Positions 8,769 to 57,655 are shown, numbered from the stretch's first letter. The stretch is 63,224 nt of DNA from an uncultured Pseudomonadales bacterium (GCA_964645645.1 CAZYBC010000006.1:1-63224); one strand, 5' to 3'. Notes: a model not told the origin generated them from the sequence alone. A program made the numbers and translations.

Positions 8769-8806
8769 GGACTGTTATATTATAACCTAAGCCTACAGAT
8801 GGCAAG

Positions 8807-10790: not shown

Positions 10791-10791
10791 A

Positions 10792-11934: not shown

Positions 11935-11942
11935 TTAGACAA

Positions 11943-14015: not shown

Positions 14016-14064
14016 AGACCACTTAGCTGACTAAAACGCTGATCTAATGTTATACTAACCAGAG

Positions 14065-14511: not shown

Positions 14512-14543
14512 GCGCATTGACTGACAATCAAATTCAATAAATT

Positions 14544-16037: not shown

Positions 16038-16102
16038 CTCTCCCTTGAAATTCCCCAGCTTTTTCGCTTTAATAGAGCTAATTAACAAAAGGAGAAAAAA
16101 CC

Positions 16103-16342: not shown

Positions 16343-16394
16343 ATAAAAACTAACAAATCAACATGAAGATGCCAGTCAATCGCTGGCATCTTTT

Positions 16395-17102
16395 ATGAAA
16401 GAACTTATGAGTCAATTTTTTCATATTGCCATTGATGGACCAGTTGCGGCTGGCAAAGGCACTGTTTCTAGACTAGTAGCAGAAAAATTAGGTTTTTTAT
16501 ATGTTGATACTGGTGCTATGTATCGCATGACTGCTTTACTGTGTTTAGAACAAGGCGTTGATATGAATAATGAGCAAGCTGTAGCGGATCTTGTAGAAAA
16601 AACCACTATGGAAATGAGAAACCCTACCAAAGAAGAGCAAGATGGTCGTCTCACAACGGTTTTTATGAATGGCGAAGATGTCTCCTGGAAAATTAGAACT
16701 CAAGAAGTTAGCCAAGGTTCTTCTCAAGTCGCGGTTCACCCTTTAGTCAGAAAAATTTTAGTGAAAAAGCAACAAGAGATTGCTGCTGGTCAAAATGTGA
16801 TTATGGAAGGCCGAGATATTACTTTTAAAGTTTTACCTCAAGCTCAACTAAAAATCTTTTTAACCGCCAACGATACTATCAGGGCTAAAAGAAGACATCA
16901 ACAACTTTTAGTAAAAGGAATTGATTCTAGATTTGATGATGTTTATAAAGAACTCAAAGAACGAGATGAACGAGACTTAAGCCGTGACACTGATCCCTTG
17001 CACATTGTTGAAGATGCTTGGGTCATTGATACCAGTGATTTATCCATTGAAAAAGTGGTTGATTTAATTGTTAATAAAGCCCGCTTAATGCTAAATAGCT
17101 AA
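16395..17102 (+). CDS. cmk: Cytidylate kinase, bacterial type (start may be ATG 16410)
   Basis: IAIDGPVAAGKGT, YVDTGAMYR, MEGRDI and IDTSDLSI motifs. Confidence 0.95.
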   Translation: MKELMSQFFHIAIDGPVAAGKGTVSRLVAEKLGFLYVDTGAMYRMTALLCLEQGVDMNNEQAVADLVEKTTMEMRNPTKEEQDGRLTTVFMNGEDVSWKIRTQEVSQGSSQVAVHPLVRKILVKKQQEIAAGQNVIMEGRDITFKVLPQAQLKIFLTANDTIRAKRRHQQLLVKGIDSRFDDVYKELKERDERDLSRDTDPLHIVEDAWVIDTSDLSIEKVVDLIVNKARLMLNS

Positions 17103-17125
17103 ACTAATCAATTTTTTTACCGACT

Positions 17126-17335
17126 ATGTTTAAAAAACACGATAATTTCGATGAACAAGATCTTTTGGATGAAGAAGAATCACTCAAACAGCAAGAAAAA
17201 TCAGAAGCAAAAAAATTAAAACCTAAAAATCCAAAAAAAGATTTAGAACAAATTGAATTTAAACAAAAATTAGTTGCACCACTAATTTTATTAATTAGTA
17301 TTTTAATTTCTTTAATTTTTTATCTTCTAAGCTGA
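17126..17335 (+). CDS. Small tail-anchored hypothetical protein
   Basis: 69 aa; charged N-terminus and C-terminal hydrophobic helix; follows cmk. Confidence 0.55.
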   Translation: MFKKHDNFDEQDLLDEEESLKQQEKSEAKKLKPKNPKKDLEQIEFKQKLVAPLILLISILISLIFYLLS

Positions 17336-17382
17336 GTTGAAAATAAAAAATCAAAATTTTACTCGCCGCGCTATTTTTTAAA

Positions 17383-19782: not shown

Positions 19783-19846
19783 CAAAAATATAATAGCACG
19801 CAAAAATAAAAATGGTGGAAGTAAAAGGTGTGTAAAAGACCAATAA

Positions 19847-21619: not shown

Positions 21620-21725
21620 ATTAATATCTAAAAGGCTTATTTTTTAATAAAACTATTATAGTCAATAAAAAATTTTTCTTTAAGCCTAAGTTTTAGATAA
21701 TTTAATTAGTCTTTAAGCAAAATTC

Positions 21726-43200: not shown

Positions 43201-46200
43201 TCTCATATTTACTTTAGGAACAATTTTCCCTTGCTCATTAACCATAAAAGTAACTTCATCAAGCAAGCCAGTATAGGTTGGCAAAGTTAAATCAACAGTT
43301 ACTTCGTTAAATTGATTCTTTACTGCCTCAATATATTGATTTCTTCTATCAACTGCCAAATTTTCATCAGCCATTAATAAATCAATAATTTCTTGTTTTT
43401 TCTTTTCGACATAAGGCTTTAATTTGGCTTTAACCGCTGCATTAATTTGATCTTGTTTTTCTTCAGCTTCTAAACCTGCAAACTGTTGTTCATATTTTTC
43501 TATTAAAAGTTGCTTATAAAGTCTAATTCCGTTTAATTTTTCCAACACAGCTGGAATCTTGAAGGCTTCTGGAGCTTTAGTTTCTGCGGTAGTGCCTAAA
43601 GCATCTACAATTGCTAAAACGTGGTGAACCATTTCTGGATGTACGCCATCACTTTCTACTCTAAAATCTGCATCATAGTTAGGATAACTATGCAATAAAA
43701 TTGCTTCATAAACAGCCTCAAAACTAGCCTTGCCGAGATGTCGTTCAAAATATGATTGATTAGCTTTTATAAAAGCGGCTGAAAAAATAGGGTGATCTTT
43801 TGAAGCTTCAAAGCTAGCTTGAGCCTGAGCAACTCCAGTTGTATAACCCATATCATGAAGTAAAGTTGCTACAACAAAGGCTAATCTATCTTTTGCTGTT
43901 ACGACTAAACCAGCTTGCTCTAACTTACTTACTGATTCTAATAAAGCTAAACCTTTATTTAAGTTACCCCTTACAATGTGGTTATTACCATGATCACTGC
44001 CGGAAAAAACCTGTTTATCTCTTAAAATTTGATAACTTAATAACCTAGCCATATCTCTAGCGAATTCAACGCCAGCAATTCTTGAATTTTCCCCATTAGC
44101 TAAGACATAATCGGCTAAAACCTCGTTAGCGGCTAACATCACATCACTAATTTCAGCTTCTGTTAACTTTGCTTTTTGTTCACCACCTTGGTAATTTCTG
44201 AGCTCAGCTTCAATGTCAGCTACTGTTGTAACTGTTAGATTTTCTTTAATGCCAAAGAAATAATTTACTTCATCCATCATTACGGCTGGTTTAACAACTC
44301 CATTGTCAACTAATCTAGTATAGGCTGCACCTAAGTCACCTTTACCGTCTACCAAATCTCTTAAGGCAGCTTTTTTACCAGCAAAAGTATTCCATCCTAA
44401 CACTGACTTAATAGTATTAATTAGTCCTTTACCTTTTGCTAAATTAAGTGTTTGAGCATATTCGGTCTTACCCTGTTGTCTTAGCTTAGCTAATTCTTCA
44501 TCGCTAGAACCATGAGCTAAAGTTACTGGAGACTCGGTTTTTACGACTTCTTCTTGAGTAGTACCACCTGTATCAGGTTGTTCTGCTTGAGCAGGAGCTT
44601 CAGTTTTTACTCCTAAAAAGTTAAGTAAAACCTCAATAGCTTGCTCATGAGTGTAAATTTCTTTATTTTCAAAAACTTGGGTGTATAAATTAGCAATCTG
44701 CTCGTTACTTAAGGCTCTTACGTTAGCAGAATATTGGCCTAAACCACGATCGGCTAAGTATTTAGTTAAAGCCGTTGTTTTTTGTTCTGTAGTTCGTTCC
44801 TTAATTTCAATAACAGGGAATTCAACACCTCCAAAAATTACAGTTTCAGCCGGCTTAACTTCTTCTTGAGTAGCACCACCAGTGCCAGGTTGTTCAACTT
44901 CTGGCTGGGCTTGCTCTGGGGTAGTGGTTTTTTGCCCAAAGCCTAAATCTTTTGCAATGCCACCAAACCAATTCCCAACTTTATAAATAAAACTGTTTTG
45001 AATATTAGTTTCAGCTTTAGCTGCAGCTTGTGGTTGAACTGGTTGAGCTTGCTGACCTGGCTGTACTGGTGTAGCTGGCTGTGATTCGCTCTTCTTAAAT
45101 AGACTGATCAAACCAGTACTTAAAACCTTTTGCACAGCTGGAGCATTAACCAAACCACCAGACCACCATTGAGTTAGATTAGTAGCAGAACCAATTAAAC
45201 CAGTGGCCCACCATCCACTTAATCTTTCTCCTAAAGTGGGTTTTGTCGTGGAGGCTTTTTGTTCTGTAGTTTGGGCAACTTTTTCCGTTTCAGTTTTTGG
45301 AGTGACTGGTTGAGTTGGTTTGTTTAAATAAGTGGCAATAAAAGCTGGCTTAATTACGGTTGGCCAAGTGGTATCTAAAAAGGCTGCTAAACCATTGGCC
45401 ATTGTTCTAGGAATAAATAAAGCAGTATTTACTAAACCGCCCTTGGGCAAATTACTCTGACGAGTAGAAAAATTATCCGCAACCGCAGTAATAATTCTTC
45501 TGGTACCGGCTAGGAGGGTGGGCTGCATAGATGGAGCTACTACTCCAGTAGCAACAGTCCTTCCAGCGTTATTTCCAGCTGCAACCTTAGCGACATCATC
45601 AGTCTTTTTAACTGTAGCATTATGCTGTAGTAAATATTCTGATAAATCACCACTATTGACTACTGCTTCTTTACTAATTGGGGCATTTTGATCAGCGTAA
45701 GCTAATCTATTAGCATCAACTTCAACATTACTTCTCATTCTAGCGAAAGCTTGAGGATTATTTGTTTCAATGTATTTTAAGATACTTTGATTAGCTGAAT
45801 CACTAAAAAGATCTTGCCATTTAGATTGAGCACTAGCTAATTTAGCTTGTCTAGCCACTAAAGTATCTTGAGATCCACCAACTAAATCAACATTTCTACG
45901 AGATTCATTGCTAGACATTTCTAGTAATTTTGCAGAAGCCCAACTAGCAATTTTAGCATCAGCTGACATTGATAATTCTGCTAAAACTCTTGTACTAGCA
46001 CTCTCGATACCATTATCTAATCCTTGAGTTGTCTTTAGTTGTTCTACTCTTAATTGAGCTTCATTAATACTTTGTCTAAATTCTTGAAAATCAAACTCAT
46101 TAGCACTCGCTAATCTAGTAGTAGCATCAACGTTAAGATCTAAATTAGATCTAGTTGAATCCAAAATAATAGCATATTGTTCAGCCACGGCTGTACCACG

Positions 46201-49200
46201 ATCAAGTCTAGCACCTGCCTGAGCAACTAAACCTTCTGGAGAATTTTTACTAACCAAAGTAACACCAGGCACATTACCTTCAGTTCTGATACTATCTCCT
46301 GTAGCCCCACCTCGACCAATGACAATGGTCATGTTTGCTGGATTATCCTGATAAAGTTTTTGAACTCCTTTAGCATCTAAATTATCATTTAATATTCTTC
46401 TGCTAATTGTTTCATTACCAGCTGAATCAACAGTTCTAACAAAGGCTACTTCTACATAGTGATCACCTCCTTGTTGAACAAAATATCGTTGTCTGTCTGA
46501 AAAATCACGACCCTGAGCATCAGCTTGAGCTATCCGCATAGTATCACCAACATCATCAGAACCAATAACATACTTCACGCTATCATTAGAAGCCAAACCA
46601 TTACTTTGAGCTAATTTTCCTGATCTAATTAAATCAACAATTAATTGAGTACTATCTTCCAAACCAGAAGCCATATAAGAACGATCTTTATTAATTCTAG
46701 CTCCGATATCAGTGTCGGCAGTGTTGACAATCTTTTCAACAGCTTCTGTATCTCTATAAGTATCAAATCCTAAAGTTGTCTCTACCACACCACGACCATC
46801 GGCAAAGGCACCTGTGACAGCGCCTACTGAAGAATTATTTAAATCAGCTAAATAATCAGCAAAAGTAGAGCGATAAGCGGTTTCTGGAGAAGAAGTTAAA
46901 CCATCAAAATTAACTTTAGAAGCCGCATTATTAACTCCAGGATTAGCTTGAGCATAAGCTTTGGCTCCAATAAATTCCATTGCTGCTTGTAAGCTAGCCG
47001 TATAACTTTGGCCTTCATTTTTAACACCTCCAGAGGCTGGGATCGTTACTGGATCTTTAGTTCTATTATTGGCATTATTAGCTTGTAATTGAGAATCAAC
47101 ATCTCTAAAGTAATCAACACCAAATTTCATCTTCAAACCTTGAGCAAAACTGTTAATTTGGTCAATTTGATCTAAAACCTGATTAGCTTGAGCACTTGAA
47201 TCTTTAAAGCCAGCTGCTTCTAAACGACTAGTTAAAGCGTTAGTATTACTAGATAGAATTTCTAACTCTTGAGCATTGCTCCTTACGTAATCAACTAAAT
47301 CACTAATTTCAGTCTCACTCATCCCTTTAAAAGCTGAACTTTCTCCATTTTTAACTTTAAGTTGAGTAAAAATTTTATCTAAAGTATCATCGGTAAAACG
47401 AGCTACTTCAGCACCATCTGCTTCTCTAACAGTTAAAACTCCTGCATGATCTCCAGATCCCCAACGATTAATTAAGCCTGTATCAAGAATAGATTCACCA
47501 ACTAAATTAGCAGCGTCTTTTTGATTTTGAGCAATTGGTTTACTGCTTTCACCAGTAGGATTAATTGCTTGCCTAGAAGGATCCATATTTATCTGAAGTT
47601 CATCTACATAAACGCCAACATTAGAACTTAAATTTTTATATAAACTAACCGCCACATCTCTCGTTGAGCCTAAACTATAATTATGAGCAGTATTTCTTAA
47701 AAATTGAATTTGATCTGGATTACTAACTAAATAGTCAGCCGCAAGCACTTCTGCTTGATAAGCTTTATCCTGTAAAAATTTATTTTGATCAAATTCTACA
47801 ACTTTAGTTCCTTCTGGACTCATGGCTCGTAATTGATTAGCTATATCAGCTTCACCACCTGCTTTAGCAATATAAATTCCTTTATCTCTGCCATAAACTG
47901 TTTTTTGAATTTCTAAAACTAAACCACCAACAAAACTTTTTCCTCCGGCAGTAGTTAACTCTACAGCTACTTTAGGAGAACTTAAAATTTGAGCTAATGT
48001 GGATAATTGATTAGATCTTGTATTGAAGAAAGCAATCCCTTCAGATTGGCCAGCTCTTAATTCTGCTGATCTAATAATATTCTCTATTTGTAAATTCTTC
48101 TGAGGATCACTACTAACTTGAGGGATATCCAATTCACGAGTCTGCAACAGCTGATCAATATCAGAAATTACTCTTAAGGCTTCAACTGAAGTTTGATCTA
48201 AACTAGCAAATTTTTGTTGCAAATCAGCTACTGTATCTAATAAAGTGGCTTGTTTAAGTTTTCTTAAAGCTTGGTTGAGTTGTTGTTCTACTGCTAGAGT
48301 GCGTTGCCCTCCATTTTGACTAATTAAATCAGCTTCTATTTTTGTTAAATCTACTTCTGAGGCTGATTTTTTACCCAATTCTGTAGCTACTTGATTTCTT
48401 AATTGTTCAGCTTGGTTCTTAGTACTTTGAGCAGTGGTTTCAGGACGGATTGTAGTCAAACCAGCTAATACAGGTTTACTAAGATTATCATCTTGATTTA
48501 AAGATGCCGCTTTAGCTTTAACTGAATCTAAATTTTGTTGTAACTGAAGTTTTTGTTGTTCTAAATTTGCTCTTTGGTTAATTAAACTTTGATTATCTGG
48601 ATTAATGTTTAGTTTACTGTCTAATGCTCTAATTGCATTATCAAAACTATTAATTTTTTCAGTTAATTTTCTGACATCTCCTTCTGTTTGAGCAATTTCT
48701 TGAATACTTTGTTTAGCTTGATTAAATCCTGCTTGCAATTCTTGAGCAACTTCTGCTTGTGTTTTAATTGGTTGTTCTTGTGGCTGAGCTGTTTTTTGCG
48801 CTTCTTCCACCTTGGCAGTCTCTGTTTTTACCTCTTGGGTACTAACGGTTTGTCCGCCCCTGCCAAACCAACCGCCAACTGTTTCTTGGATTCGTTGGAA
48901 AATTCCGGGCTGAGCGGCAGGTTTAGTGGTTTCTACTTGAGCTACTTGTTCTGTTTCAGTTTTAACTGTTTCTGGTTGAGCGGCACCTTCAGCAGTTTTG
49001 GCTGTTTCGGGCTTAATGCCTTCTGCTTGAGCTTTAGCGACAGCTGCTTCAATAGCTTGCTTTTGTTGTTCAAATTCTTGATTAACTTTAGCTAATTCAG
49101 CATCGGCCTGAGCTAATTGAGCTTCCAGTTCTCCACGTTGAGTTTTAATCTGTTCTGCCTGAGTTACATCACCAATTTGTTCGGCAATTTTCACTGATTC

Positions 49201-52200
49201 TTCAACCTTGGCAATCTTACTTTCTAATTCTATTTTCTGTTGTTCAATAATTTGTTTTTGAGTTTGAGCTGCTTCCAATTTTATTTGAGCATCAGCAATC
49301 ACTGTTTCTGGCAGAATTGCTTTAGCGAGTCTTATGTCTTGTTCTTGTTGTCTGGTTTCGTAGATTTTATAAGCATTATCTTTTTGAACAGTAAGATCGG
49401 TATTTTGCTTAATTAGATTATCTCTCACTGTAGCTAAAGCTAATTTTTCTGATTCTGGTAAATTAGGTTCTTTGCTTAACTTGCCCACAATGGCTTCAAT
49501 ATCGGTTTGGTTAGCTTTAACTAAATCTTCATAATATTTAGCCTTGGCATAATAGGGGTCAGATAAAGTCGTATCTAACTTAACGGCATTATCAAGTTTA
49601 GCCACATCCAAAAGAGTTTGCTGAGTTTTAACAAGTGGATCAAGTTTAGGCACATCCGCGCCACCTAAACTGCGGACTGGCTGGCTGTTTCTAAAATTAC
49701 TAACATCAGACTGCACTTCAAAACCAGCTTGGCCTAGACCAACAGCTAAGCCCAGGAAGGCTCTAGTCTGAGCAAATTGATCATTAGGATTAAGATTAGC
49801 GGTATTTTGTAGAGCGTAATAATCAAGCATTGAGCCAGATACATCAGCTAAAAGATCAGTGCCTAAATTAAGGGCTGCATTATTAGGATTAAATAAACCA
49901 GCTGTACCAGCCACAGTGTTTAACACTGAGCCGCCAACACTGGCCCAATCAGTTAATTGTTGACTTTGAGCAGCATTAACCGTTGCTAAAGTTGTATTAG
50001 CCAGGCCTAAGCCATAACCTAGTTGTTGAGCATTAGAAGCAACTAAGCTAGTCGCAGTTTGGGCAGTCCCAATAATGCCTTGGGCGCCACTGCCCATTAA
50101 GCCAGTTAATTGCACGCCTTGTTTGGCCGCTGTTAAACTGCCAGTAACCGGAGCTAAAACAAAGTTGGCTCCAGCTAAAGCGAAGTTAGCACCCTGTTGT
50201 AAACAGGCTGGATCATTTAAAGCATCTTCAGAAGTACGACAAACTGCGGCGGTCTGAGAGCCAGCGCCAAAAAAGTTTGAGCTAGCTAAAGAAACTTGAG
50301 TTGTACCTAGTAAAGTAGCTCCCACTCCTAAAGCACTCGCTCCACCAGCAGCAGCAGTGATTCCTAAAGCGGGAACAGCTACTACTGCACTCGCTATCGC
50401 TACCTTTTCCATCACCGCACCACTTAATTCCAAAGTGGCTAAAAACTTATCTCCACCAGTATATTGATTAGCAAAATCAGTCTGAACATTAACATAATTT
50501 TCAACGCTATTGCCAAACCAATTGCTAGAAGCCATGGTGGTCATTAAGTTATAGGAAAATTTATCTACACCTTGCAAATCCTTAGTGGCTATTAAAGCTT
50601 CGCTTGCCCATTCTGAATCTCGATTTAAAATTCTACTGGTAATATTTTCTTTACGTAAAGCTAACTGAGCATCATCCAAGCCAAACACTACCTTACCAGC
50701 ACTGTCACCTTGGCAATCCGCAATTTGACCGTTAGTTTTAGTTACTAACTGACATTTTTGTTCTACTAAATCCTGAACATTGCGACCACCCAAATAGTCT
50801 TGATAAAGTTGTTCTAAATTGCGATTTTCTTGTTCAACTAAGCGTTTTTGATTAGCCACTTGAGCAATAGCTGGTTTTTCTAAACTAGGTGCTAAATACG
50901 CCAAAATTCCTTCTTGAGTACTACATTTTTGATAATCATTTGGATTGTCCGCTCGACATTGGTTGTACAAAACCTGCATATCTGTACTTAAATAAGTGTT
51001 GATGGTTTCTGTTTGAGCTTCTTCAACTTTAGCGGCAATCTGACGATATTTTTTAGTTTCTTCTTGTTTATAAGTAATAATATTTTTAACTTGATCTTCA
51101 CTGACCCCAGGGACTACGATCTGTAAAACCTGTTGTTCATTGCTACATAATTCTGGTTTACCAGTTAAACTGACACATTCAACCTGTAAATCGGTATAAC
51201 CACCAGCTAAATAAATACCAAATTTTTGATTTAAATTTTGAGTAAAAGCCTTATCCTCTTCAACCTGATCAAAAATATAAGCAGTTTCAATCTTTGGATA
51301 CAAAGCTTTTAGAATTTTTTCACTAGATAAAGTACAAGCAGTGTTGCTATCACCTAATTCAGCTTTACACTGATTTCTTAAATAGTCGAGATCATTATCA
51401 ACCAAAGCCTGATAAGAACGAGAAAATTTAGCGTTCATTAAATTAGTCACTTCTTCTTGGCTTAAATTAGTTTTTTGCTCTAACTGACTTAAGGTTAATT
51501 CTTTGTTATCAGTTAAATCTTGAATAGCTTGATTACTTGAAGGCTTGATTATTGGTTGAGATGGAGCTGGAGTTTTTTCAGCTAACAAATCTGCCAAACT
51601 AGAAGCTGTAGGAATCGGAGTAGGTGGAACTTTAGTAGGTGTGGCAGTTGGATAAGCCGGAGTACGATTTTCTTGCACAATTGAACCAGTGGGTGAGCAA
51701 ACATTTTCACAAACTTGATTCTGTGTACATTGGCCATTTTTATCTAATTGGGAATACCAACAGAACTGCTCACCAACTTCTACCGTACCTTGGCTAGTTG
51801 GATAAGTACAAGGCATGATGAAAGCAGGCCCCTTACAAGCATTACCCACCGCTCCTTCTGGGATACATTGACCTTTGGCACATTTAAAGTTTTCTTTACA
51901 AGGATTAAATAACCCACATTTCTCTTTTTCCTGACAAATCCCAGCCTCACAACCACCTTCGCAGTTATATTCTAAATAACCAATTTGAGTTTGTTTACAA
52001 ATTAAAAGCTTAGTGCCGTCAGCAGAACATTGACTAGAAGGATAAGTACAAACATTGGCCGCACATTGACTGCCACTACAACCGCCATCACATTTACTAC
52101 TTCTAACAAAAGTTCCTTGCTGACAGTTATATTGCCAGTAAGAGCTGTTCCACCATTCACATTTAGTTTCTCCACTGGAACATTCTTTTTTAATTTCTCC

Positions 52201-54093
52201 AGGTTCTTGACAAGTTTTATGGCCTTGAACATCAGGAATACATTGATTAGACTGACATTCATAATTAGCATTGCAAACTACTCCATTAGCTTTATCACGA
52301 TAGTTAGCTACTTTACCAGTCTGACAAGGACCACAATCTTTAACATTTAAATTACATAAGCCAGTCTTGGTATCTTGCTTGGTAAAATAACAAATTTTCT
52401 CAGCTATAACGTTACCATTATTGTCAAAATTACAAGCCTGAACAAAAGCCTCTCTACAACTGACATCTTTAATAGGTTCACAACGAAAAAGAAAATTAGA
52501 AAGTCTCCCTTCAAGGCCAGGACAGCAAGAAGAACCGGCCAATATACCAATCTGTTCACCTTGACCTTTACAAACTGTTTCACCAATCTGATAAGGAGGG
52601 ATAGGAGTAGGTGTGGGTAATAAACAAGCTTGATTGCCACAACCATAGGCACAATTACTAGGATTACCCCAAGTTTGATTATTACTACAAGTATATTCAA
52701 CACCATTCTGACATTTGTGTTCACCTAAGTTACATTCAATTCCACCAGTTTTTTCACCACCTTGATGAGTATCATCAACCTTTGGCTCTTGGCAGGTTCT
52801 TGGTAAACCTTTACATTCCAATCCTGGTAAACACTTTTTATTGGCAAAAATACCACAATACTCACCTTGCTTTAAGGAAACTTCCACTACTTTAGCAGGA
52901 ATAGGGGTAGCAGTAGGTGCAAGCTTTTCTTCTGTTTTACTTTTGGTCTTAGGTTGATCAGTTTTTTCTTCAGTAGTAGTGCTGGTTGCATCAATTGGTG
53001 TAAACGACACGCATTTTTTACTACCAGTACAAGCAGAAGCCTCACCAGTACCGACACAAGTACTGTAATAACATTTAGCTTTACCTAAGGTTAAACCAGC
53101 CCGAGTGGTTTCTTCAAAGTATTCAGATTTACAAGCTTGACCATTAAAACGACAGCTATCACTTCCTGTTCCAATTCCGATAGTACTCTTATCAGTACAC
53201 TGATTGTTGTAACATTGATAACCAGTAGGACATTTTTGTTCGGTCCAAGTTTTACAATCACTCTTACAAGTCTTGAGAGTATCATAATTACATTGCACTT
53301 CACCTGGGTTACAGTTACACTGTTCAGTTTTCACACAACAAACCTGCATCGTATCACAACCACCACACTGACTACTTTGAGCAGCTTCTAAGCCCGCAGG
53401 ACAGCCACCAGTATAGGCACTATAACAACCAGCTTTACTAGTTGTACCACCTGACCCAGGTTTAATAGTCACTTTAGGGGTAGGAATAGGCGTACTAGCT
53501 GGTACTTTAGTTGGTCTAGGAGTTACTCCCACATTACCACAAGGAGCTGGACAATTACTTCCAGACTGATTTCTTTGAGTTTCCCCATCCCAACACCTGA
53601 CACATTCAGACATAGATAAGCATGCATATTCACCATGCTTAGCATAACTACAATTAATATTCGGCCCACAATAAGGATCACCAGAACATTTGCTTCTATC
53701 TACCTCTAACCACTGCCCACCTTGGCACTCTACACATTGTTTAGTCCCACCACAGGCTGTAGTCCCAGGATCAACATAAGCATTAGTACTAGACAAAAAA
53801 CATTTTTTTACACCTGGTGTGGGAGTGAGTGTTGGTTTAGCACTTGGCTGGGCACTTGGAGAAGGTGTGGTATACAAATCTGTACTAGCTTGTTGACGAA
53901 TATCTTGATTAACCTTAACCAAATAAAAAGCCGCTGCCCCGCCTACCAATAACAAAATTAAAGGTAACAATAAAATAAATTTAGTTCTAAATCTTACTAA
54001 AGGTCTTAAAGTAGAGGATTGGCGATGTGGAGTAAAAAACTTACTAAGTTTAAAAAGTAAATTTTTTTCACCCTCTTTCCTTGTTTGTAACAT
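34237..54093 (-). CDS. Giant (6,618 aa) membrane-anchored multidomain protein: Cys-rich region, SecA-like ATPase, HD, J-domain, PPP phosphatase, FHA, ART-like, transglutaminase-like, TPR
   Basis: Single uninterrupted 19,857-nt frame; motifs detailed in the findings. Confidence 0.95.
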   Translation of the reverse strand: MLQTRKEGEKNLLFKLSKFFTPHRQSSTLRPLVRFRTKFILLLPLILLLVGGAAAFYLVKVNQDIRQQASTDLYTTPSPSAQPSAKPTLTPTPGVKKCFLSSTNAYVDPGTTACGGTKQCVECQGGQWLEVDRSKCSGDPYCGPNINCSYAKHGEYACLSMSECVRCWDGETQRNQSGSNCPAPCGNVGVTPRPTKVPASTPIPTPKVTIKPGSGGTTSKAGCYSAYTGGCPAGLEAAQSSQCGGCDTMQVCCVKTEQCNCNPGEVQCNYDTLKTCKSDCKTWTEQKCPTGYQCYNNQCTDKSTIGIGTGSDSCRFNGQACKSEYFEETTRAGLTLGKAKCYYSTCVGTGEASACTGSKKCVSFTPIDATSTTTEEKTDQPKTKSKTEEKLAPTATPIPAKVVEVSLKQGEYCGIFANKKCLPGLECKGLPRTCQEPKVDDTHQGGEKTGGIECNLGEHKCQNGVEYTCSNNQTWGNPSNCAYGCGNQACLLPTPTPIPPYQIGETVCKGQGEQIGILAGSSCCPGLEGRLSNFLFRCEPIKDVSCREAFVQACNFDNNGNVIAEKICYFTKQDTKTGLCNLNVKDCGPCQTGKVANYRDKANGVVCNANYECQSNQCIPDVQGHKTCQEPGEIKKECSSGETKCEWWNSSYWQYNCQQGTFVRSSKCDGGCSGSQCAANVCTYPSSQCSADGTKLLICKQTQIGYLEYNCEGGCEAGICQEKEKCGLFNPCKENFKCAKGQCIPEGAVGNACKGPAFIMPCTYPTSQGTVEVGEQFCWYSQLDKNGQCTQNQVCENVCSPTGSIVQENRTPAYPTATPTKVPPTPIPTASSLADLLAEKTPAPSQPIIKPSSNQAIQDLTDNKELTLSQLEQKTNLSQEEVTNLMNAKFSRSYQALVDNDLDYLRNQCKAELGDSNTACTLSSEKILKALYPKIETAYIFDQVEEDKAFTQNLNQKFGIYLAGGYTDLQVECVSLTGKPELCSNEQQVLQIVVPGVSEDQVKNIITYKQEETKKYRQIAAKVEEAQTETINTYLSTDMQVLYNQCRADNPNDYQKCSTQEGILAYLAPSLEKPAIAQVANQKRLVEQENRNLEQLYQDYLGGRNVQDLVEQKCQLVTKTNGQIADCQGDSAGKVVFGLDDAQLALRKENITSRILNRDSEWASEALIATKDLQGVDKFSYNLMTTMASSNWFGNSVENYVNVQTDFANQYTGGDKFLATLELSGAVMEKVAIASAVVAVPALGITAAAGGASALGVGATLLGTTQVSLASSNFFGAGSQTAAVCRTSEDALNDPACLQQGANFALAGANFVLAPVTGSLTAAKQGVQLTGLMGSGAQGIIGTAQTATSLVASNAQQLGYGLGLANTTLATVNAAQSQQLTDWASVGGSVLNTVAGTAGLFNPNNAALNLGTDLLADVSGSMLDYYALQNTANLNPNDQFAQTRAFLGLAVGLGQAGFEVQSDVSNFRNSQPVRSLGGADVPKLDPLVKTQQTLLDVAKLDNAVKLDTTLSDPYYAKAKYYEDLVKANQTDIEAIVGKLSKEPNLPESEKLALATVRDNLIKQNTDLTVQKDNAYKIYETRQQEQDIRLAKAILPETVIADAQIKLEAAQTQKQIIEQQKIELESKIAKVEESVKIAEQIGDVTQAEQIKTQRGELEAQLAQADAELAKVNQEFEQQKQAIEAAVAKAQAEGIKPETAKTAEGAAQPETVKTETEQVAQVETTKPAAQPGIFQRIQETVGGWFGRGGQTVSTQEVKTETAKVEEAQKTAQPQEQPIKTQAEVAQELQAGFNQAKQSIQEIAQTEGDVRKLTEKINSFDNAIRALDSKLNINPDNQSLINQRANLEQQKLQLQQNLDSVKAKAASLNQDDNLSKPVLAGLTTIRPETTAQSTKNQAEQLRNQVATELGKKSASEVDLTKIEADLISQNGGQRTLAVEQQLNQALRKLKQATLLDTVADLQQKFASLDQTSVEALRVISDIDQLLQTRELDIPQVSSDPQKNLQIENIIRSAELRAGQSEGIAFFNTRSNQLSTLAQILSSPKVAVELTTAGGKSFVGGLVLEIQKTVYGRDKGIYIAKAGGEADIANQLRAMSPEGTKVVEFDQNKFLQDKAYQAEVLAADYLVSNPDQIQFLRNTAHNYSLGSTRDVAVSLYKNLSSNVGVYVDELQINMDPSRQAINPTGESSKPIAQNQKDAANLVGESILDTGLINRWGSGDHAGVLTVREADGAEVARFTDDTLDKIFTQLKVKNGESSAFKGMSETEISDLVDYVRSNAQELEILSSNTNALTSRLEAAGFKDSSAQANQVLDQIDQINSFAQGLKMKFGVDYFRDVDSQLQANNANNRTKDPVTIPASGGVKNEGQSYTASLQAAMEFIGAKAYAQANPGVNNAASKVNFDGLTSSPETAYRSTFADYLADLNNSSVGAVTGAFADGRGVVETTLGFDTYRDTEAVEKIVNTADTDIGARINKDRSYMASGLEDSTQLIVDLIRSGKLAQSNGLASNDSVKYVIGSDDVGDTMRIAQADAQGRDFSDRQRYFVQQGGDHYVEVAFVRTVDSAGNETISRRILNDNLDAKGVQKLYQDNPANMTIVIGRGGATGDSIRTEGNVPGVTLVSKNSPEGLVAQAGARLDRGTAVAEQYAIILDSTRSNLDLNVDATTRLASANEFDFQEFRQSINEAQLRVEQLKTTQGLDNGIESASTRVLAELSMSADAKIASWASAKLLEMSSNESRRNVDLVGGSQDTLVARQAKLASAQSKWQDLFSDSANQSILKYIETNNPQAFARMRSNVEVDANRLAYADQNAPISKEAVVNSGDLSEYLLQHNATVKKTDDVAKVAAGNNAGRTVATGVVAPSMQPTLLAGTRRIITAVADNFSTRQSNLPKGGLVNTALFIPRTMANGLAAFLDTTWPTVIKPAFIATYLNKPTQPVTPKTETEKVAQTTEQKASTTKPTLGERLSGWWATGLIGSATNLTQWWSGGLVNAPAVQKVLSTGLISLFKKSESQPATPVQPGQQAQPVQPQAAAKAETNIQNSFIYKVGNWFGGIAKDLGFGQKTTTPEQAQPEVEQPGTGGATQEEVKPAETVIFGGVEFPVIEIKERTTEQKTTALTKYLADRGLGQYSANVRALSNEQIANLYTQVFENKEIYTHEQAIEVLLNFLGVKTEAPAQAEQPDTGGTTQEEVVKTESPVTLAHGSSDEELAKLRQQGKTEYAQTLNLAKGKGLINTIKSVLGWNTFAGKKAALRDLVDGKGDLGAAYTRLVDNGVVKPAVMMDEVNYFFGIKENLTVTTVADIEAELRNYQGGEQKAKLTEAEISDVMLAANEVLADYVLANGENSRIAGVEFARDMARLLSYQILRDKQVFSGSDHGNNHIVRGNLNKGLALLESVSKLEQAGLVVTAKDRLAFVVATLLHDMGYTTGVAQAQASFEASKDHPIFSAAFIKANQSYFERHLGKASFEAVYEAILLHSYPNYDADFRVESDGVHPEMVHHVLAIVDALGTTAETKAPEAFKIPAVLEKLNGIRLYKQLLIEKYEQQFAGLEAEEKQDQINAAVKAKLKPYVEKKKQEIIDLLMADENLAVDRRNQYIEAVKNQFNEVTVDLTLPTYTGLLDEVTFMVNEQGKIVPKVNMRVSSVQALLSDLFGEDFSVAAFKKAMEDLGMTSEQIKNLGGIIKDYRSANDDQKAQLRDRLTMQSERALFTFDVDSLMKEDGFSELFAGLMRHDLRMEIVDLINKSNELSPNDLAAELLDRLIALESYVDDPQLKKQINLVIDSLEDENLNETDVLQLKNTLNNLLVSDLQDYLGVEDTDLISGIQTTDWVFAVREIVESEIATPDLTSSIPGIGGILTDTTKIFTKVRGFLDLYQTLQQQSQAPKAIEQVQPVQEVQPAEIEPVTEQIKPEVEQPVSGEVSVQAEQIGTGGTTQEEVVATTEQPMFAQEETTPTEEAQTVEAEAPAEEVTTTTTEENYPILPYEEVVAPLVPYGGYPSLPSYAQELAAAREQQEYLAQMAVYDQPSTVLVTTTVVSDLAGTEELEQGDTRTVNQTPALPNLTNTEVVKEYLPVLYDSRAVEFNWLVDAVDQVVARITGQKRVDQFLETFAYSPVMQSLQAKPALEADLTNYPIVRYQEAPLARMAETISTFTENEVPAATTAVIEDRGPIRFGQAIPLMGSVDTVQNLFEQYQAWLARRATLANLADQYNITAYFATHPVKAKEGQGSEVENQETETVAVESGTEAITADQTNYPIVLTAEQANYPLARIEGREYLEAELAQADKQAIVARDTVLKSVYNSIPVGSGPINSVLALLPQYQAFVKAQTANQQHLGKMFKAWADQLAKLKTESTEEVAAETALTEPVVEEPSPELTLEEQLEQVKAQIAELDQQIAEINAEYDPRYKAYNDGLNSIEKQLYEQKISASFRYNATNLAGKLKELIGYINWDAENDLSQIGSHLAILETDLATIFNEFNYIAGQNEENEALNNVYKKVLELIEAYNWTNESATLTELIDTLNNEFIPKIEPYLEDNQEVLATLSKTLEQRNSALANATTTYQQAHQAEKEQIEALRAKYRDLDTQKTALLKQANYLTEAIVKRDNDLVAPNPPTAAVADSYAPVEEVIQVKDEAQAAREQLLGLLKVIPGLNAIEQFVANIDQVNFLTGLVNVWTASELSLSQKVTETFKVLPESVTPGIANQRFTEILTQAESLEDLHTRLEKNFSYGNNYWMLVNPATNQIEFVNLFKFIDNVDDTLSSLNNKEFDEDVSATLADWPNYAPIRAAGQQLVAIALAQRKQANATKAEAFYADYRQQQEQLINRLEIKPETKVAELKTLAQNPPNQKSWLTDNNQIVGADTVVSWLDRIDFENVNQVIPADKIPLSALREKVQALLDLRKSEQARKAAEKYQQAQTAYSKFLLRLNLSSETTAAQLEVLASNQDLTIDDYLKMFGLTRDSEQTDFTAAKRALLNPVHPDNYEMLGTAYLFDKKTNLEMQALLANLAAATKLLNRALIDLEEYFKNPEAYLRKHNSTASSQPSTDFYTQIKKAEDAIKSTLYKARNLDELIELMSKYEETRDMVDDVREFVEGKIKADRLLESYGIRDLAKKLLAEEAEERASYIDKLNKLPIFANLMPLISHSSTTLDQLREIWNTINGFRFGNFDAQTLEGTDVRFNFSLLMTQIERILNLSGSLYRRPINEINNAQNVQGLLDFLTRYENEDIFLDDETFYTSEELKAEKQSLIDLRAAWNTDDYNQVDVILNNLRIAAIKNKVLSIIRDRYQRNINDLYLKAVNAKTLAELRNIFNQSPILYYPSDALTPRATILTSSYLVSSLDNGLVQNLPTELQNIVNKLLTQAKVQQAAQQVAPSSGQSVSNQTRTVNSVMVGDVHSNKNRLVKLLQESGWIEFIGQTEKPGFFARIFNFFIKLFTGKDPAKSSLNFEDEWQLNVLGNANSISFTGDYFDRNRNDREKTPGIDIIKLLWKLKQQASKMVGVEFNMLGGNHEVEFLLAMLLDENEDFRLLQALAHNGVDMDEVVEAKKDPQVWEILQNLDWMALRVDGSVMQHSDVFSYADFIYPDLISGIGWEKLADVEETKQHLDMILQRVQNDQLTPQQVVERINSNMKNYVQTAVRNNDLNSIFRLFDILTLDKKDSQFLNNPETTDLYLELFATAANKGQNRIYHGHNQKLGKSQPIYHDGRVINIDRGMGEHYGGKGDIVKETIYAGEQPASQQPSGYSQSAAQSPQAQAAQPTFTPTTITIGRGDGGLRNYQINDERVSSRHAKISNNSQGQWFLVDTSTNGTFLYNVQNPSGQRVYGSVEIKNGDVIKIINQYFKIKIDGNKVSLEDVTLNFSGTGSYNTKGCSSCPIAFGEFNTEFTSFFIAQSLANTISVEADKADLQALNQTAQAQVAVLKNMANDHTFDNAPAQETLDALAETADAMLKKTEAEKAQAIAEMAEAFQTIDQAISQITAAQDSAQNQAITDLTTLKNELKLISAELEALQVKPSNRLAGVFERINIQLEEIALYVKRISGDVSRLVRPEEEEETGETSITEEVSSTKIKIGDQEIEALVLGKTDPSQITAENLDQLFKLYHGASKKLIVDENYDFFADEDAPDGSYTIGAGLYTTDNHALAEEYANLRAKQNLQTETGVLTTLVPYQAKMLDLRNGQSLPEPLFKAWVEFMQAKFAQKKAQYEAISKPDGIEEMMFEFEKRYYDFLVAIAAKEPDQENRQIHYVLATRFIPEYNMEVGLGSSQNFYFAEFMKNLGFDGLISQEPTDIEGMIKADSFVFFNYSTIGSVEDWQRRSETESKIEENKETGVLEQFQPTFAEQLTELVNVLGVEDLDFDSSKPAKEILAELMPKIGNEEIFSIEAENPEKELMRLVTYHALQTAYQRLNPSGVEEINQARERIKDLEKDESPLVKREREDLIFQLLRQNVLTFPSGDYSYVKHPHYSFLQPSESNEYDCIAQTAYAISVLYNLGKDRNQIRTALSGFHLSALYNDASINQINVYDPRTADRYSLTKATNDNVPNNDFFSKYSIESIKTALDFVNETDHLGFLEPSYQEARQNIHFMTPEDGFLAAFYTHLGRTHQEEENFDKAEEYYQIALMFDPENSYIAAMRSLYR

Positions 54094-54099
54094 GTAAGT

Positions 54100-55734
54100 T
54101 TATTCTTCTAACTTGACTGCTAACCACCAACTCCAAATACCGCCGGTAATAAAGAACAAACCAGCCAGAATTAGAGCTAGTGTCACTTCAAAGCTTCCAG
54201 CTGAAAAAGTTCCACTAGAAGTAGAAACAACTGCAGACCGACTACTCATAGCTACGGTGGGACTTAATTTTACAGTTGGAGTAACTTTTTGAGTAGGGGT
54301 AGGAGAAGAGTAAGGATTACCAGAACCATAAGTTGTACTAGCTAAGGCTAATTGATTACTGGTGGTAGAAGTTTTTTCACCCACATAGAAGGTTTTAGTT
54401 GTGGTAACTAATTTACCAGTGGTTGGATCAGTATAACTATAAGTAACTGTGTGTTCACCTGGTTCTAGATTTTTACCCAAAGTGGCGAGATCAAGTTCAA
54501 AATCACCATTTTTATCGGCGGTAACAGTCGTTTCAATCTGATTATCAGAATGGATCTCAATTGTAACCACTACGTTTGGTTTAGCTTCACCTTTAATTAA
54601 AGGCTGAGCAACGTGCTCTAATTGAGTAGTATCTTTAACAGTTAAATCTACTTCTGTTGCTAAAGTAGCTGAAGTAGAAGCTGAAGTAGAAGTAGGAGCC
54701 TTAGTAGGAGCAACCGTTACAGAACTAGCTGGGACACTCGTAGGAATTGGCATACTATAATCACTAACCACTTCGCTAGGTGAATCATCATACACGTCAC
54801 TATCTGAATAATCAGTCACATTGTTACTTGGCTCTTCCTCAAGAGCTGAAGACATACTTAAATTTGCTAAATTCTTGCCAAAAGCAGAATTACTAGCTTC
54901 ACCAGTAGTCTGACCCGTTGTTAGAGTTGGGATAGCACTAGGGCTAACAGCGGGAACAGTGCTAGCTGAGGCAGCGCCAAATTTTAAATCAGCAACTGGC
55001 TGAGCACTAGCAATAGTAGTTTGATAACTTAAAGTCTGACTAAAACTTTTGCCTTGAGCTAAAAAATTAACAGCTGTATCTTTGTTAAAAATAGCTGAAG
55101 CTGTACCCTTGGCATTTCTAGCGGTAGCCAAAGAAATTCCCCAGCCACCGGTATTCCGCACTAAAGAAGAAAGTGGACCTGCTTCACTCATGGTTAAATA
55201 AACGACGCTGCCTTCTGCTGGCGTACCATCTTGATTATATAAATTACCATAAATCATCGTAGAATCAGGAGCTGAACTTAAAGAAGCCGCTGTTGTTACT
55301 GTGAAAGGTTTACCTTGATTATCAAAAGTAGTTCTTTCTGAGCTAGTTCCTAAAACATAAAAATAAGCAGTGTTAGGTTTTAAACTTCTTACAGTAATAT
55401 GATGAACATTGTAATTACCAGCCACACCAGAAAGCTGAGTTCTGTCATCACTAGCTTGAAGGCTAAGTTTATTTTCAGCGCTACCATATTTAACAAAACT
55501 AGTAGTAGGTTCATCTGTAAAAAATGACACGGTAAAACTAGTATCAGTTACATTAGTTAAGCGGACATTTTTAGGAGTGGTCTGAGGAGTGGCTCTAGGA
55601 GCAAAAACTCCAGTCCCATTTTTAAATAACAATAAGCCTGACACTAAAGCCCCAACTAAAACGAAAATGCCAATCATGGTAGGCATCTGTTTCTGCATCA
55701 AATTTTTTCTTTTGTTAACAACTGGTTGTGGCAT
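54100..55734 (-). CDS. Surface protein with FN3/purple-acid-phosphatase-N-like domain, Ser/Thr/Pro linkers, Ig-like domain and C-terminal membrane anchor
   Basis: N-terminal TM; PKNVRLTNVTDTSFTVSF...HHITVRSLKPNTAYFY; IKGEAKPNVVVTIEIHS; TFSAGS plus terminal TM (ORF track start 55806). Confidence 0.75.
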   Translation of the reverse strand: MPQPVVNKRKNLMQKQMPTMIGIFVLVGALVSGLLLFKNGTGVFAPRATPQTTPKNVRLTNVTDTSFTVSFFTDEPTTSFVKYGSAENKLSLQASDDRTQLSGVAGNYNVHHITVRSLKPNTAYFYVLGTSSERTTFDNQGKPFTVTTAASLSSAPDSTMIYGNLYNQDGTPAEGSVVYLTMSEAGPLSSLVRNTGGWGISLATARNAKGTASAIFNKDTAVNFLAQGKSFSQTLSYQTTIASAQPVADLKFGAASASTVPAVSPSAIPTLTTGQTTGEASNSAFGKNLANLSMSSALEEEPSNNVTDYSDSDVYDDSPSEVVSDYSMPIPTSVPASSVTVAPTKAPTSTSASTSATLATEVDLTVKDTTQLEHVAQPLIKGEAKPNVVVTIEIHSDNQIETTVTADKNGDFELDLATLGKNLEPGEHTVTYSYTDPTTGKLVTTTKTFYVGEKTSTTSNQLALASTTYGSGNPYSSPTPTQKVTPTVKLSPTVAMSSRSAVVSTSSGTFSAGSFEVTLALILAGLFFITGGIWSWWLAVKLEE

Positions 55735-55867
55735 ATAAAATCTAGAAGTAAAGAACTTCCTGTTATCATTAAAGACAAAAATTGAACTTAATTCAAGGCG
55801 AAACAAAACCGAAATTTACTCAAGCAAAAATAATTGACTGAGTTAGCACTAGTTAATACAACTAACC

Positions 55868-56290
55868 TTATTGAAAATTCATAACATTAGCAGCTGGAGA
55901 AGCCACAGCCGGAGTAACTGTTTTAGCCGCATTACTTACAGCTGGACTTGGGGTAACAACTAATTGATCTGCCCCAACTTTTACAATTTTCATTAAATTT
56001 TTATTGTTTTCATCTTCTTGAACCATATAAATATCAAATTTAGCTAAATCACTAGCAGAATAAATTTGCTTTTTCTCTAAAGTATCCAAAACAGTAGTAT
56101 CAACACTAGGAGTCAAAGGACTAGCTAAATTTTTTAACTCAGTAGAAATTTTTAAAGTATTCTGAGCAGTAAAAAGATTCATCATTACCCAAAGTAAAAT
56201 TACAACCAATAAAAAAACTAGAAAAGTAAATAAAAACTTCCGTTGTTTTAAATCTGCTATTTGACTAACTGGCTTATTACTTGATGACAT
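55868..56290 (-). CDS. Bitopic protein in the PilP-like position of the pil operon
   Basis: 140 aa with one N-terminal TM; 3 nt after the pilO stop; PLTPSVDTTVL motif. Confidence 0.5.
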   Translation of the reverse strand: MSSSNKPVSQIADLKQRKFLFTFLVFLLVVILLWVMMNLFTAQNTLKISTELKNLASPLTPSVDTTVLDTLEKKQIYSASDLAKFDIYMVQEDENNKNLMKIVKVGADQLVVTPSPAVSNAAKTVTPAVASPAANVMNFQ

Positions 56291-56293
56291 AGG

Positions 56294-56971
56294 TTAATTC
56301 TGTGTTTTTAATTCAACTTTTTGAGTCTCATCTACTTTAGTATTATTACCTAAATCATAATATGGAACCTGCAAACTAAGAGTCGCCTTTAAACTCTTTT
56401 GCCCTCGATTATCATTAACATGAAAAGTAATGCTATCTACAATAATTAATCTTCTATTAGAACGTAATTTTTCTGCCACATTACGAATAGCCTGATAATT
56501 ACCAATTAAACTCAATTTTAAAATCAGGTTATTTTGTTTAGCTTTGCTTAAATTACTAGTAGTAAGATTAGTTAAATCAGTTTCAACTGGGATTTCATTA
56601 ACTGAAGCAGTTTCTATTACTACTACTTCTTCACTGCAAACTTTTTCAATTGTTTTTAATAACTCTAATAGATTAGCCGAACTAGGAATTGCTTGGTCTA
56701 AAAGATAAAGCCTGTTTTCCAAATTAGAATACACTTGCTGAGCTGAAGCTAAAGCAGAAATCTTTTGGTCAAACTTTTTAGACAATTCTTTTTTATCTTC
56801 AATTTCTTTAATCAAATCAGCCATAGTTAGTAAAGTAGGACGGATAGCCGCCAAAGCAAAAAATACAATTGAAAAAACAGTCAGAAATAATTCCAGAGAA
56901 ACCTTAGCAACTGGATTGTTATAAAAAGTTTGTAAAGCTAGATTCAATTGTGTTTTTTCTTTAGTAGACAT
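56294..56971 (-). CDS. pilO: PilO-like type IV pilus alignment protein
   Basis: TM, coiled coil, LDQAIPSSANL...GNYQAIRNVAEKLRSNRRLIIVDSI ferredoxin-like pattern. Confidence 0.75.
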   Translation of the reverse strand: MSTKEKTQLNLALQTFYNNPVAKVSLELFLTVFSIVFFALAAIRPTLLTMADLIKEIEDKKELSKKFDQKISALASAQQVYSNLENRLYLLDQAIPSSANLLELLKTIEKVCSEEVVVIETASVNEIPVETDLTNLTTSNLSKAKQNNLILKLSLIGNYQAIRNVAEKLRSNRRLIIVDSITFHVNDNRGQKSLKATLSLQVPYYDLGNNTKVDETQKVELKTQN

Positions 56972-56976
56972 ATTTT

Positions 56977-57600
56977 TTAATTAAGATCTGGTTCTGTTTC
57001 AGTAGTCACTGATTTTTTAGTTTCCGTGTCTTGTTTTTTAACCTCAATTGTTTTTTTAGTATTAGCTTTTAAGCTAAAGGCAAAACCTGGACGATTGTCA
57101 TCCAGAGATTCTATCTTATCAATTCTTACTTCAAAAAAATCCTCTGACAAAGTTAAATTATTAACAAAAGTATTCAGCATACTTTGAGAAAAAACTTCAC
57201 CTTCAACACTAACCGAATTTTGATTAATAGTTAAATTCTCAAAAACCACATTACTAGGAGTAATCTTACTTAGTTTAGGAAAAATATCAGCAATATTATC
57301 ATTAACAGCCAAAACCTTATAATCAGTCAGCTTCTTTTGCAGATTTAAAAAATTGGTTTCTAATTCACCATAAGATAAAATTAAAGATTTTTTCTGTTCA
57401 ATTTCTTTATTAATATCTGTCCGCTGACGATCTAAAGTAAACCTAGCCACAAAACTTAAAATTACTAATAGTTCAGTAAAAATCACAATATATCTACCCA
57501 CTGATAAAGCCCACTGGATAGAACGACCAATTACTCCTTTAAAAAAAGGATCCTTAGGAAAAAGATTAATCTTAATCTCGACAGGCTTCTTATTAGGCAT
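56977..57600 (-). CDS. pilN: PilN-like type IV pilus alignment protein
   Basis: INLFP N-terminus, TM, coiled coil, ITPSNVVFENL...VEGEVFSQSMLNTFVNNL; own TGT-TACAAT promoter 7 nt before the ATG. Confidence 0.75.
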   Translation of the reverse strand: MPNKKPVEIKINLFPKDPFFKGVIGRSIQWALSVGRYIVIFTELLVILSFVARFTLDRQRTDINKEIEQKKSLILSYGELETNFLNLQKKLTDYKVLAVNDNIADIFPKLSKITPSNVVFENLTINQNSVSVEGEVFSQSMLNTFVNNLTLSEDFFEVRIDKIESLDDNRPGFAFSLKANTKKTIEVKKQDTETKKSVTTETEPDLN

Positions 57601-57655
57601 TGCTTTTATTGTAACAAGTTTATAAAGAAAACACCATTAACTTAAACCACTCAAA

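Follow-up and report, generated by a model that had tools for sequence, protein, structure and literature searches.

The DNA window analysed here is the whole of a 63,224-nucleotide (nt) stretch deposited under an uncultured Pseudomonadales label (GCA_964645645.1, CAZYBC010000006.1:1-63224), and its minus strand carries one giant gene. This gene (34237-54093, minus strand, as are all features of its protein given below) is a single uninterrupted open reading frame (ORF) of 6,618 codons; the frames of its relatives are also open. Since 6,618 codons remain open in DNA of 33-39% GC (29-39% for the window), the ORF is not a chance product. A first-pass annotation of the sequence had described an apparently complete but rewired SecA-type motor embedded in a non-SecA protein, and had suggested that it may be a private, cis-acting translocase. 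The whole SecA-like module is carried by this one ORF, and it is very probably a real and active ATPase of SecA-like fold, predicted to hydrolyse ATP.

The nine peptide motifs on which the first-pass annotation was based were all found exactly where it had placed them, between amino acids (aa) 2043 and 2633 of the same ORF. RecA-like domain 1 holds AVELTTAGGKS (from aa 2043; 47935-47967), with the Walker A lysine K2052, and YLVSNPDQIQFLRN (from aa 2121). VYVDELQINMD (from aa 2161) contains the Walker B residues D2164-E2165. The motifs FGVDYFRD (from aa 2324), SYTASLQAAME (from aa 2363) and STFADY (from aa 2409) lie in an insert, and are followed by GAVTGA as motif III (aa 2424-2429; 46807..46824), IVIGRGGATGDSI as motif V (aa 2590-2602) and AQAGARLDRG as motif VI (aa 2624-2633). 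The generic motifs of superfamily 2 (SF2) ATPases are clearly far above chance.

An exhaustive HMMER search over 1.84 billion representative proteins returned 22 homologs, among them the window protein itself (P0002). The longer homologs (2,000-7,800 aa) all have the module within a giant protein and the others are fragments. A word-index search, using the single sequence or a profile, matched only one fragment (P0001). A scan of genome contigs found nothing with the single protein and succeeded with a tighter family alignment; the scan of GTDB species genomes gave 14 loci in 14 species, with frames open over 1,985 to more than 6,647 codons. When the whole protein was compared by BLASTP with 14 large relatives, aa ~1900-2860 (45514..48396) was the sole region in common, and tblastn against the syntenic locus L001 matched aa 1977-2857 only. 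The sequence flanking the module is hypervariable. In locus L001, an ENA contig, frameshifts such as those at ~11572-11686 and 12180-12183 split the giant gene (4174-21737) into at least seven called genes. The breaks probably stem from errors in long-read sequencing and not from decay, since the frames are intact in 14 other species.

Conservation was assessed over 30 aligned family sequences (23-49% identity to the window; only covered positions counted). Invariant residues were Q2029 of the Q-motif, G2050-G2051-K2052 followed by T or S, D2164-E2165, T2427-G2428 of motif III, T2598-G2599 of motif V, and Q2625, R2629 and R2632 of motif VI, so that the Walker A lysine and the DE pair are kept, as originally proposed. 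Q2362 and E2373 in the insert (GQSY...AAME) are likewise invariant. Motifs V and VI had been described as diverged. For motif VI this did not hold, as its Q-x3-R-x2-R spacing is that of SecA and is invariant. Motif V has kept its TG(D), but the preceding Arg is replaced in several relatives; in the window this residue is R2592 of GRGG, at the position of the Arg of GRGTD in SecA. As the only shared block, with invariant catalytic residues, the module is the family-defining core and is under strong purifying selection.

The structure of the module (aa 1996-2800; 45694..48108) was predicted with AlphaFold2 from a 14-sequence family alignment, with a mean predicted local distance difference test (pLDDT) of 82.8 and a predicted template modelling (pTM) score of 0.78. 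An N-terminal helix leads into RecA-like domain 1 (aa 2020-2166; 47596..48036), which holds Q2029, LTTAGGKS (2046-2053), FLRN (2131-2134) and D2164-E2165. A mixed alpha/beta insert of ~250 residues follows, then the motif III strand and, with motifs V and VI, RecA-like domain 2 (aa 2430-2655; 46129..46806), whose fold is taken from the model. The model ends in a 43-residue helix (aa 2666-2708) and a bundle of four shorter helices (aa 2713-2790), together at 45724..46098; the helices assigned by DSSP are, in model numbering, H671-713, H718-732, H749-769, H771-783 and H785-795. W2718, L2724 and N2768 are conserved in this helical region, which is possibly, judging from the model, an analogue of the helical scaffold domain of SecA.

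The model was compared by Foldseek with 350,542 PDB chains. The best match was SecA (5eul_A, E = 1.2e-10, TM-score 0.50 by query and 0.54 by target), in a structure of the SecA-SecY complex with a translocating substrate, and SecA occupied ranks 1-4, 6, 9 and 28. The check advised in the first-pass annotation thus came out in favour of SecA, with no nucleic-acid helicase ahead of it. XPD was at rank 5 (E = 1.2e-7, query-normalised TM-score 0.29), and DinG (E = 1.7e-6), MDA5/RIG-I and UvrB also ranked below SecA, with query-normalised TM-scores of 0.22-0.33. Since the TM-score to SecA exceeds that to other SF2 proteins and is highest in the closed-clamp, SecY-bound state, the insert and/or the C-terminal helices are suggested to superpose on SecA. 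The conserved module, its predicted fold and its 6,618-aa host bear out the description of a two-RecA-domain ATPase inside a much larger non-SecA protein. Its description as complete, which would call for the scaffold helix, helical wing domain and two-helix finger of SecA, is unproven: the 43-residue helix after the second nucleotide-binding domain resembles the scaffold helix, and there is no zinc-finger tail, as aa 2000-2800 contain zero Cys and hence no Cys-rich C-terminal zinc-binding tail. Such a tail is not universal in SecA proteins.

Between Walker B and motif III lies an insert of 256 aa (aa 2167-2422; 46828..47595), at the site of the SecA preprotein cross-linking domain (PPXD). Modelled in isolation (pLDDT 83.5), the insert had as its top PDB match 5k94_A, a chimera of maltose-binding protein (MBP) with the SecA PPXD. 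This match is weak (E = 0.29, probability 0.69, TM-score 0.34) and the alignment may partly cover the MBP moiety. SecA itself (1tf5) was at rank 50, and neither XPD nor DinG was among the top 50. A PPXD had been claimed in the first-pass annotation: a large insert is indeed present at the PPXD position, and from the model its PPXD-like identity is unproven but favoured.

Architecture of the giant protein and its relatives

Ahead of the motor, the window protein has two predicted transmembrane helices. The first, TM1 (aa 38-58; 53920..53982; Kyte-Doolittle peak 2.53, at aa 40), would be a signal-anchor preceded by a basic N-terminus. It is followed by a predicted ectodomain (aa 59-1228; 50410..53919), which is Cys-rich with Pro/Thr linkers, has no Pfam match and is not conserved among relatives. 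The second helix, TM2 (aa 1229-1255; 50329..50409; peak 2.13, at aa 1231), leads into an amphipathic, Gly/Ala-rich stretch that extends to ~aa 1480 and then into a linker (aa 1481-1995; 48109..49653) that appears, from its charged heptad-like composition, to be helical and coiled-coil-like. There are 86 Cys in the 1,170 residues between the helices (78 in aa 60-830) and five in the 5,388 residues after TM2. A topology with the N-terminus inside, the ectodomain outside and the C-terminus with the ATPase in the cytoplasm is predicted solely from, and fits, the hydrophobicity peaks and the Cys distribution. A short motif, NQD(I/L/N)RQQAS, was observed right after TM1 (aa 62-70; 53884-53910) and recurs near-verbatim in P0003, P0005, P0007, P0009 and P0010, whose ectodomains show no other relationship; a role as a signal for sorting or processing is possible.

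Downstream of the motor, the only domain above threshold is an FHA domain (aa 5749-5820; 36634..36849; Pfam FHA, E = 1.1e-12, 48.6 bits). Sub-threshold Pfam matches suggest an HD-domain-like segment (aa ~3401-3473; 43675..43893; E = 5e-4, 20.7 bits, cut-off 22) and a segment resembling calcineurin-like metallophosphatases (aa ~5376-5531; 37501..37968; Metallophos, E = 5.8e-4, 20.8 bits, cut-off 21.5), which shows the motifs GDVHSN, GDYFDRN and GNHE. A DUF3990-like segment (aa ~6051-6318; 35524-35850) is also sub-threshold, and a C-terminal TPR repeat (aa 6574-6607; 34273..34374; TPR_1, E = 3e-5) is under the gathering score. The DUF3990-like segment matches two separate copies in P0012 (37% and 27% identity) and belongs to the small number of modules that are shared downstream of the motor. 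A CS(S/D)C motif (aa 5853-5857; 36523-36537), which accounts for two of the five Cys after TM2, lies downstream of the FHA domain and is followed by a coiled-coil stretch; it recurs in relatives as CSSCSEVR, CSDCQEVKAA and CSSCAEVRAA. Three copies of (G/D)TGG(A/T)TQEEV were seen between modules (44857-44886, 42310-42339 and a third near aa 3174); they could serve in processing or be no more than linkers.

The relatives share one constant plan of TM1, a variable ectodomain, TM2, a helical linker and the motor, in which the N-terminal helix is homologous and the second helix before the motor is equivalent. The remainder is swapped. An FHA domain is again present downstream of the motor in relatives, and P0006 has a Fic domain. 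A third transmembrane helix is present far downstream of the motor in P0007 (from aa ~4734), P0009 (~6537) and P0010 (~5003), and is followed by Amidase_2, a C39-like peptidase and VanY in P0007 and by an SLT lytic transglycosylase in P0010.

Genomic setting and source lineage

Upstream of the giant gene on the minus strand lies a compact set of co-directional genes (54100..59347) with intergenic gaps of 3-61 nt, and the giant gene closes this set as its last large member. In order of transcription, the upstream genes are MurJ (57656-59347), PilN (56977-57600), PilO (56294-56971), a 140-aa protein with a single transmembrane helix (55868-56290) and a 568-aa FN3/Big_13 surface protein with transmembrane helices at its N- and C-terminus (54100-55806), with assignments from Pfam. 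The gene order is identical in L001, L003, L008 and L009. PilM, PilB, PilC and PilT were not seen among the window ORFs scanned, and none of SecY, SecA and SecY2 is encoded in the window. A 135-codon ORF (48688-49095, plus strand), antisense to the giant gene just beyond the motor, is most likely spurious.

The window also encodes GroEL, LepA, TsaD, a class II ribonucleotide reductase, a Sua5/TsaC-TsaE fusion protein (9618-10790, plus strand) and two PBP1A paralogues (17383-19803, minus strand; 27220-29925, plus strand), one of which adjoins a GH18 chitinase-like gene (29930-31171, plus strand). Two tRNA-Met genes are divergently placed (1212-1281, minus strand; 1524-1598, plus strand). The possibility that the giant gene encodes a polyvalent protein of a phage or plasmid was rejected, its neighbours being cellular housekeeping genes, and a defence system was rejected on a negative PADLOC result. 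The window had no blastn match in plasmid and phage collections. Its DNA is cellular, neither phage nor plasmid.

Relatives found in the genome scan come from metagenome-assembled genomes (MAGs) labelled as Candidatus Paceibacterota, Woesebacteria, Pacebacteria, Gottesmanbacteria and Parcubacteria. Candidatus Paceibacterota maps to the phylum Minisyncoccota, which we take to be the present NCBI name for the Candidate Phyla Radiation (CPR)/Patescibacteria. We conclude that the source of the window is an ultra-small bacterium of the CPR/Patescibacteria. Several relative loci (L002, L003, L006, L007, L010-L012, L014 and L015) are labelled 'uncultured Pseudomonadales' or 'Gammaproteobacteria', yet carry the CPR-type giant gene, and L003 has the PilN/PilO synteny as well. 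The labels on those MAGs are probably wrong.

Possible roles of the module

We tentatively propose, as the likeliest of the readings considered though one that falls just short of being probable, that the motor exports protein through a membrane channel. The chain would insert at TM1, expose the 1,170-residue Cys-rich ectodomain and re-enter at TM2. The motor and its coiled-coil linker would remain cytoplasmic, together with modules of regulatory or effector-like type (HD-like, metallophosphatase-like, FHA and TPR) over ~3,800 residues. Tethered in this way, the motor would use ATP to thread polypeptide through a channel, which could be SecYEG or one linked to the PilN/PilO-type machinery encoded nearby. 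The cargo might be the large extracytoplasmic parts of the family, such as the C-terminal cell-wall hydrolases after the third transmembrane helix in relatives, or alternatively operon partners or effectors. A SecA-type task, namely membrane transfer after synthesis, is indicated because the peptidoglycan enzymes of the relatives must get outside after thousands of cytoplasmic residues. The gene with its family and synteny, the invariance of the catalytic residues and the predicted SecA-like fold are computational results; beyond these, we infer that the substrate would be polypeptide and not nucleic acid, that a channel would be used and that the motor would act in cis.

Several results weigh against an export motor of SecA type. 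Pfam SecA_DEAD (PF07517), SecA_PP_bind (PF01043) and SecA_SW (PF07516) gave no match at E <= 10 in the window segment or in the 14 family members, and NCBIfam, PHROGs and PADLOC had no match for the motor. Searches of the PDB sequences by phmmer, and by hmmsearch with the family profile, returned noise alone and no SecA. Smith-Waterman comparison with a genuine E. coli-type SecA gave z-scores of -0.6 to 1.0 relative to shuffles; of the E. coli and B. subtilis SecA sequences used, the E. coli one was 96% identical to a real cluster representative. With hhalign, the whole module against SecA reached P = 0.011 (one sequence) and P = 0.076 (shallow SecA profile), in comparisons of poor power because the SecA profile was confined to enterobacterial SecAs with mutual identities of >=90%. 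When the domains were aligned separately, a P of 0.0035 was obtained for the Walker A segment alone, and the insert against the PPXD picked the DYIV/GRRWSDGLHQAVE segment at P = 0.25.

The best local profile alignments nevertheless pair TTAGGKT with RTGEGKT, FLRN with YLRD, DE with DE, AVTGA with GMTGT, AQAGARLDR with NQLRGRSGR, and DYFR...GQSYTASLQAAME with DYIV...GRRWSDGLHQAVE. These coincide with the motif pairing, colinear with SecA, that the first-pass annotation had put forward, a coincidence that is suggestive at the sequence level; significance was absent by hidden Markov model (HMM), profile and pairwise tests.

The structural and architectural evidence also has its contrary side. The assignment of the insert as a PPXD is weak at E = 0.29. 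The window protein has no third transmembrane helix and no recognised extracellular C-terminal domain, and its post-motor modules (FHA, HD and phosphatase) are of typically cytoplasmic type. Strict cis export of the N-terminal ectodomain would be awkward, because the ectodomain is made before the motor. Finally, in BFVD, a library of viral structures, proteins of Klosneuvirus-like giant viruses annotated as DUF3638/'ubiquitinyl hydrolase 1' match the model as well as SecA does (E = 1.6e-11 to 1e-7, query TM-score 0.41-0.48). Because these proteins match equally, 'SecA-type' denotes a fold class, one not confined to membrane translocation, and not a function, which lowers confidence in the functional assignment.

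The BFVD matches favour an alternative in which the module is a SecA/DUF3638-like cytoplasmic ATPase, an unfoldase, remodeller or switch for the protein's own enzymatic and FHA modules, with no transmembrane transport. The module would then belong to a SecA-like class found in giant 'conflict' proteins of eukaryotes, giant viruses and endosymbiont effectors, and 'SecA-like helicase-related domains' have been listed among the effector modules of Amoebophilus (Zhang et al. 2012). The cytoplasm-type domains after the motor and the missing third helix agree with this. In contrast, the module always lies soon after a transmembrane anchor and is the sole conserved part of the family, and in relatives the cell-wall hydrolases downstream of the motor are extracytoplasmic. 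In addition, Pfam DUF3638 (PF12340) and DUF3645 (PF12359) had no match in any of the 14 members at E <= 10, and DUF3638 proteins are themselves uncharacterised. We regard a purely cytoplasmic role as unlikely, if a serious contender.

An extension of the export proposal is that the protein is a self-contained device for contact-dependent delivery, in which the ectodomain recognises a host and the motor, with the PilN/PilO apparatus, exports its own C-terminal effectors. We consider this improbable. If true, it would be a polymorphic-toxin-like system with a built-in translocase, whose swappable effectors (phosphatase, HD, Fic, ART-like and cell-wall hydrolases) would be threaded onto or into the host, and would represent a novel mode of secretion in ultra-small episymbionts. 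The CPR/Patescibacteria are mostly uncultured episymbionts whose attachment to and exploitation of hosts are poorly understood.

Similarly doubtful is a reading in which the module would translocate along or unwind nucleic acids, as enzymes of XPD/DinG or RIG-I type do; anchored in the membrane and encoded next to the type IV pilus genes, it would pull in or process DNA, for example when a CPR cell takes up DNA. The lower-ranking Foldseek matches are to such enzymes, PilN and PilO lie immediately upstream and an HD-like domain lies downstream. The Arch domain of XPD, like the insert here, is placed between motifs II and III. SecA, on the other hand, has an E-value ~1,000-fold better than the nucleic-acid helicases and a TM-score of 0.50 versus 0.29-0.33, XPD and DinG are absent from the top matches of the insert, and no nucleic-acid-binding domain was detected nearby. 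Since the motor is without Cys, it has no XPD-type Fe-S cluster/Arch arrangement, and an XPD-type Fe-S helicase was rejected on this ground. That the resemblance is due to chance, or that the domain has decayed and lost its function, as the shuffle-level pairwise similarity to SecA and the silence of the HMM libraries might suggest, is effectively refuted by conservation, given the invariant nucleotide-binding residues in 30 sequences, the sole conserved block, the confident fold and the intact ORFs in 14 species.

Relation to known SecA-like systems

The module resembles SecA in its two RecA-like domains with SF2 motifs, the DE pair and the Q-x3-R-x2-R of motif VI, in its Walker A context (AVELTTAGGKT in the family, IAEMRTGEGKT in SecA), in the large insert between motifs II and III and in the long helix after domain 2. 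It differs in that the family insert is ~100 residues longer than the PPXD, in the absence of any SecA HMM match and in the absence of a Cys-rich tail. SecA is a soluble protein of ~900 aa, whereas here the motor has a covalent transmembrane anchor inside a protein of 6,618 aa. Because sequence comparison failed to identify SecA and fold comparison identified it, we describe the module as working in a SecA-like way and as a probably distant relative, and not as a member of SecA.

In the accessory Sec system of Gram-positive bacteria, SecA2/SecY2, a dedicated SecA paralogue serves very large surface proteins. There, the motor is separate and works with a dedicated SecY2 channel and with glycosylation partners, whereas in the window it is fused into the giant protein. 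The DUF3638/DUF3645 proteins of giant viruses and eukaryotes, for which almost no literature was found, are alike in a fold match as strong as that of SecA and in lying within very large multidomain proteins. They differ in having no Pfam match in the family and in being expected to be cytosolic, without transmembrane anchors. The SecA-like domains of Amoebophilus, which occur with ubiquitin-system modules, may be of the same class as the DUF3638 matches. The BFVD matches point to a possibly broader group of such ATPases within giant multidomain proteins.

The concept of a built-in SecA-like motor for self-export is already published and is not new. Self-export has been proposed for giant actinobacterial toxins with SecA-like domains (Kaur et al. 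2021, PMC8195603), and self-secretion via SecA-like modules for giant proteins of Omnitrophota and some Actinobacteria (West-Roberts et al. 2023, bioRxiv 10.1101/2023.11.21.568195). The latter modules are Pfam-detectable as SecA_DEAD and preprotein-binding domains, have no scaffold/wing domain and lie beside transmembrane regions; C39 peptidases and cell-wall-degrading domains occur together with them, as do neighbours that resemble type II secretion components. A 2026 preprint also describes a SecA_DEAD architecture cluster among long proteins of Omnitrophota. The CPR family is similar in having its motor in a multi-thousand-residue protein, near transmembrane helices and with no SecA_SW match, in its pilus-type neighbours, which parallel the type II/IV-secretion-like ones of the published proteins, and in its cell-wall-degrading domains, which here are in P0007 and P0010 and not in the window protein. 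In contrast to the Omnitrophota and actinobacterial modules, which were found by Pfam SecA_DEAD/SecA_PP_bind, the CPR family was not; the two are set apart by their published descriptions. The CPR family is further distinguished by its phylum, by a motor that is the single conserved block, by the fixed anchor-linker-motor arrangement and by the MurJ-PilN-PilO operon. Our literature search returned no report of built-in SecA-like motors in Patescibacteria. The invariant core was missed by Pfam, NCBIfam, PHROGs and PADLOC, so that structure prediction was needed to detect such modules, and K2052, D2164/E2165 and R2629/R2632 offer a mutable handle on how giant proteins reach the surface. As the theme now extends to a third lineage beyond Omnitrophota and Actinobacteria, these results suggest that a built-in motor is a general solution for giant proteins.

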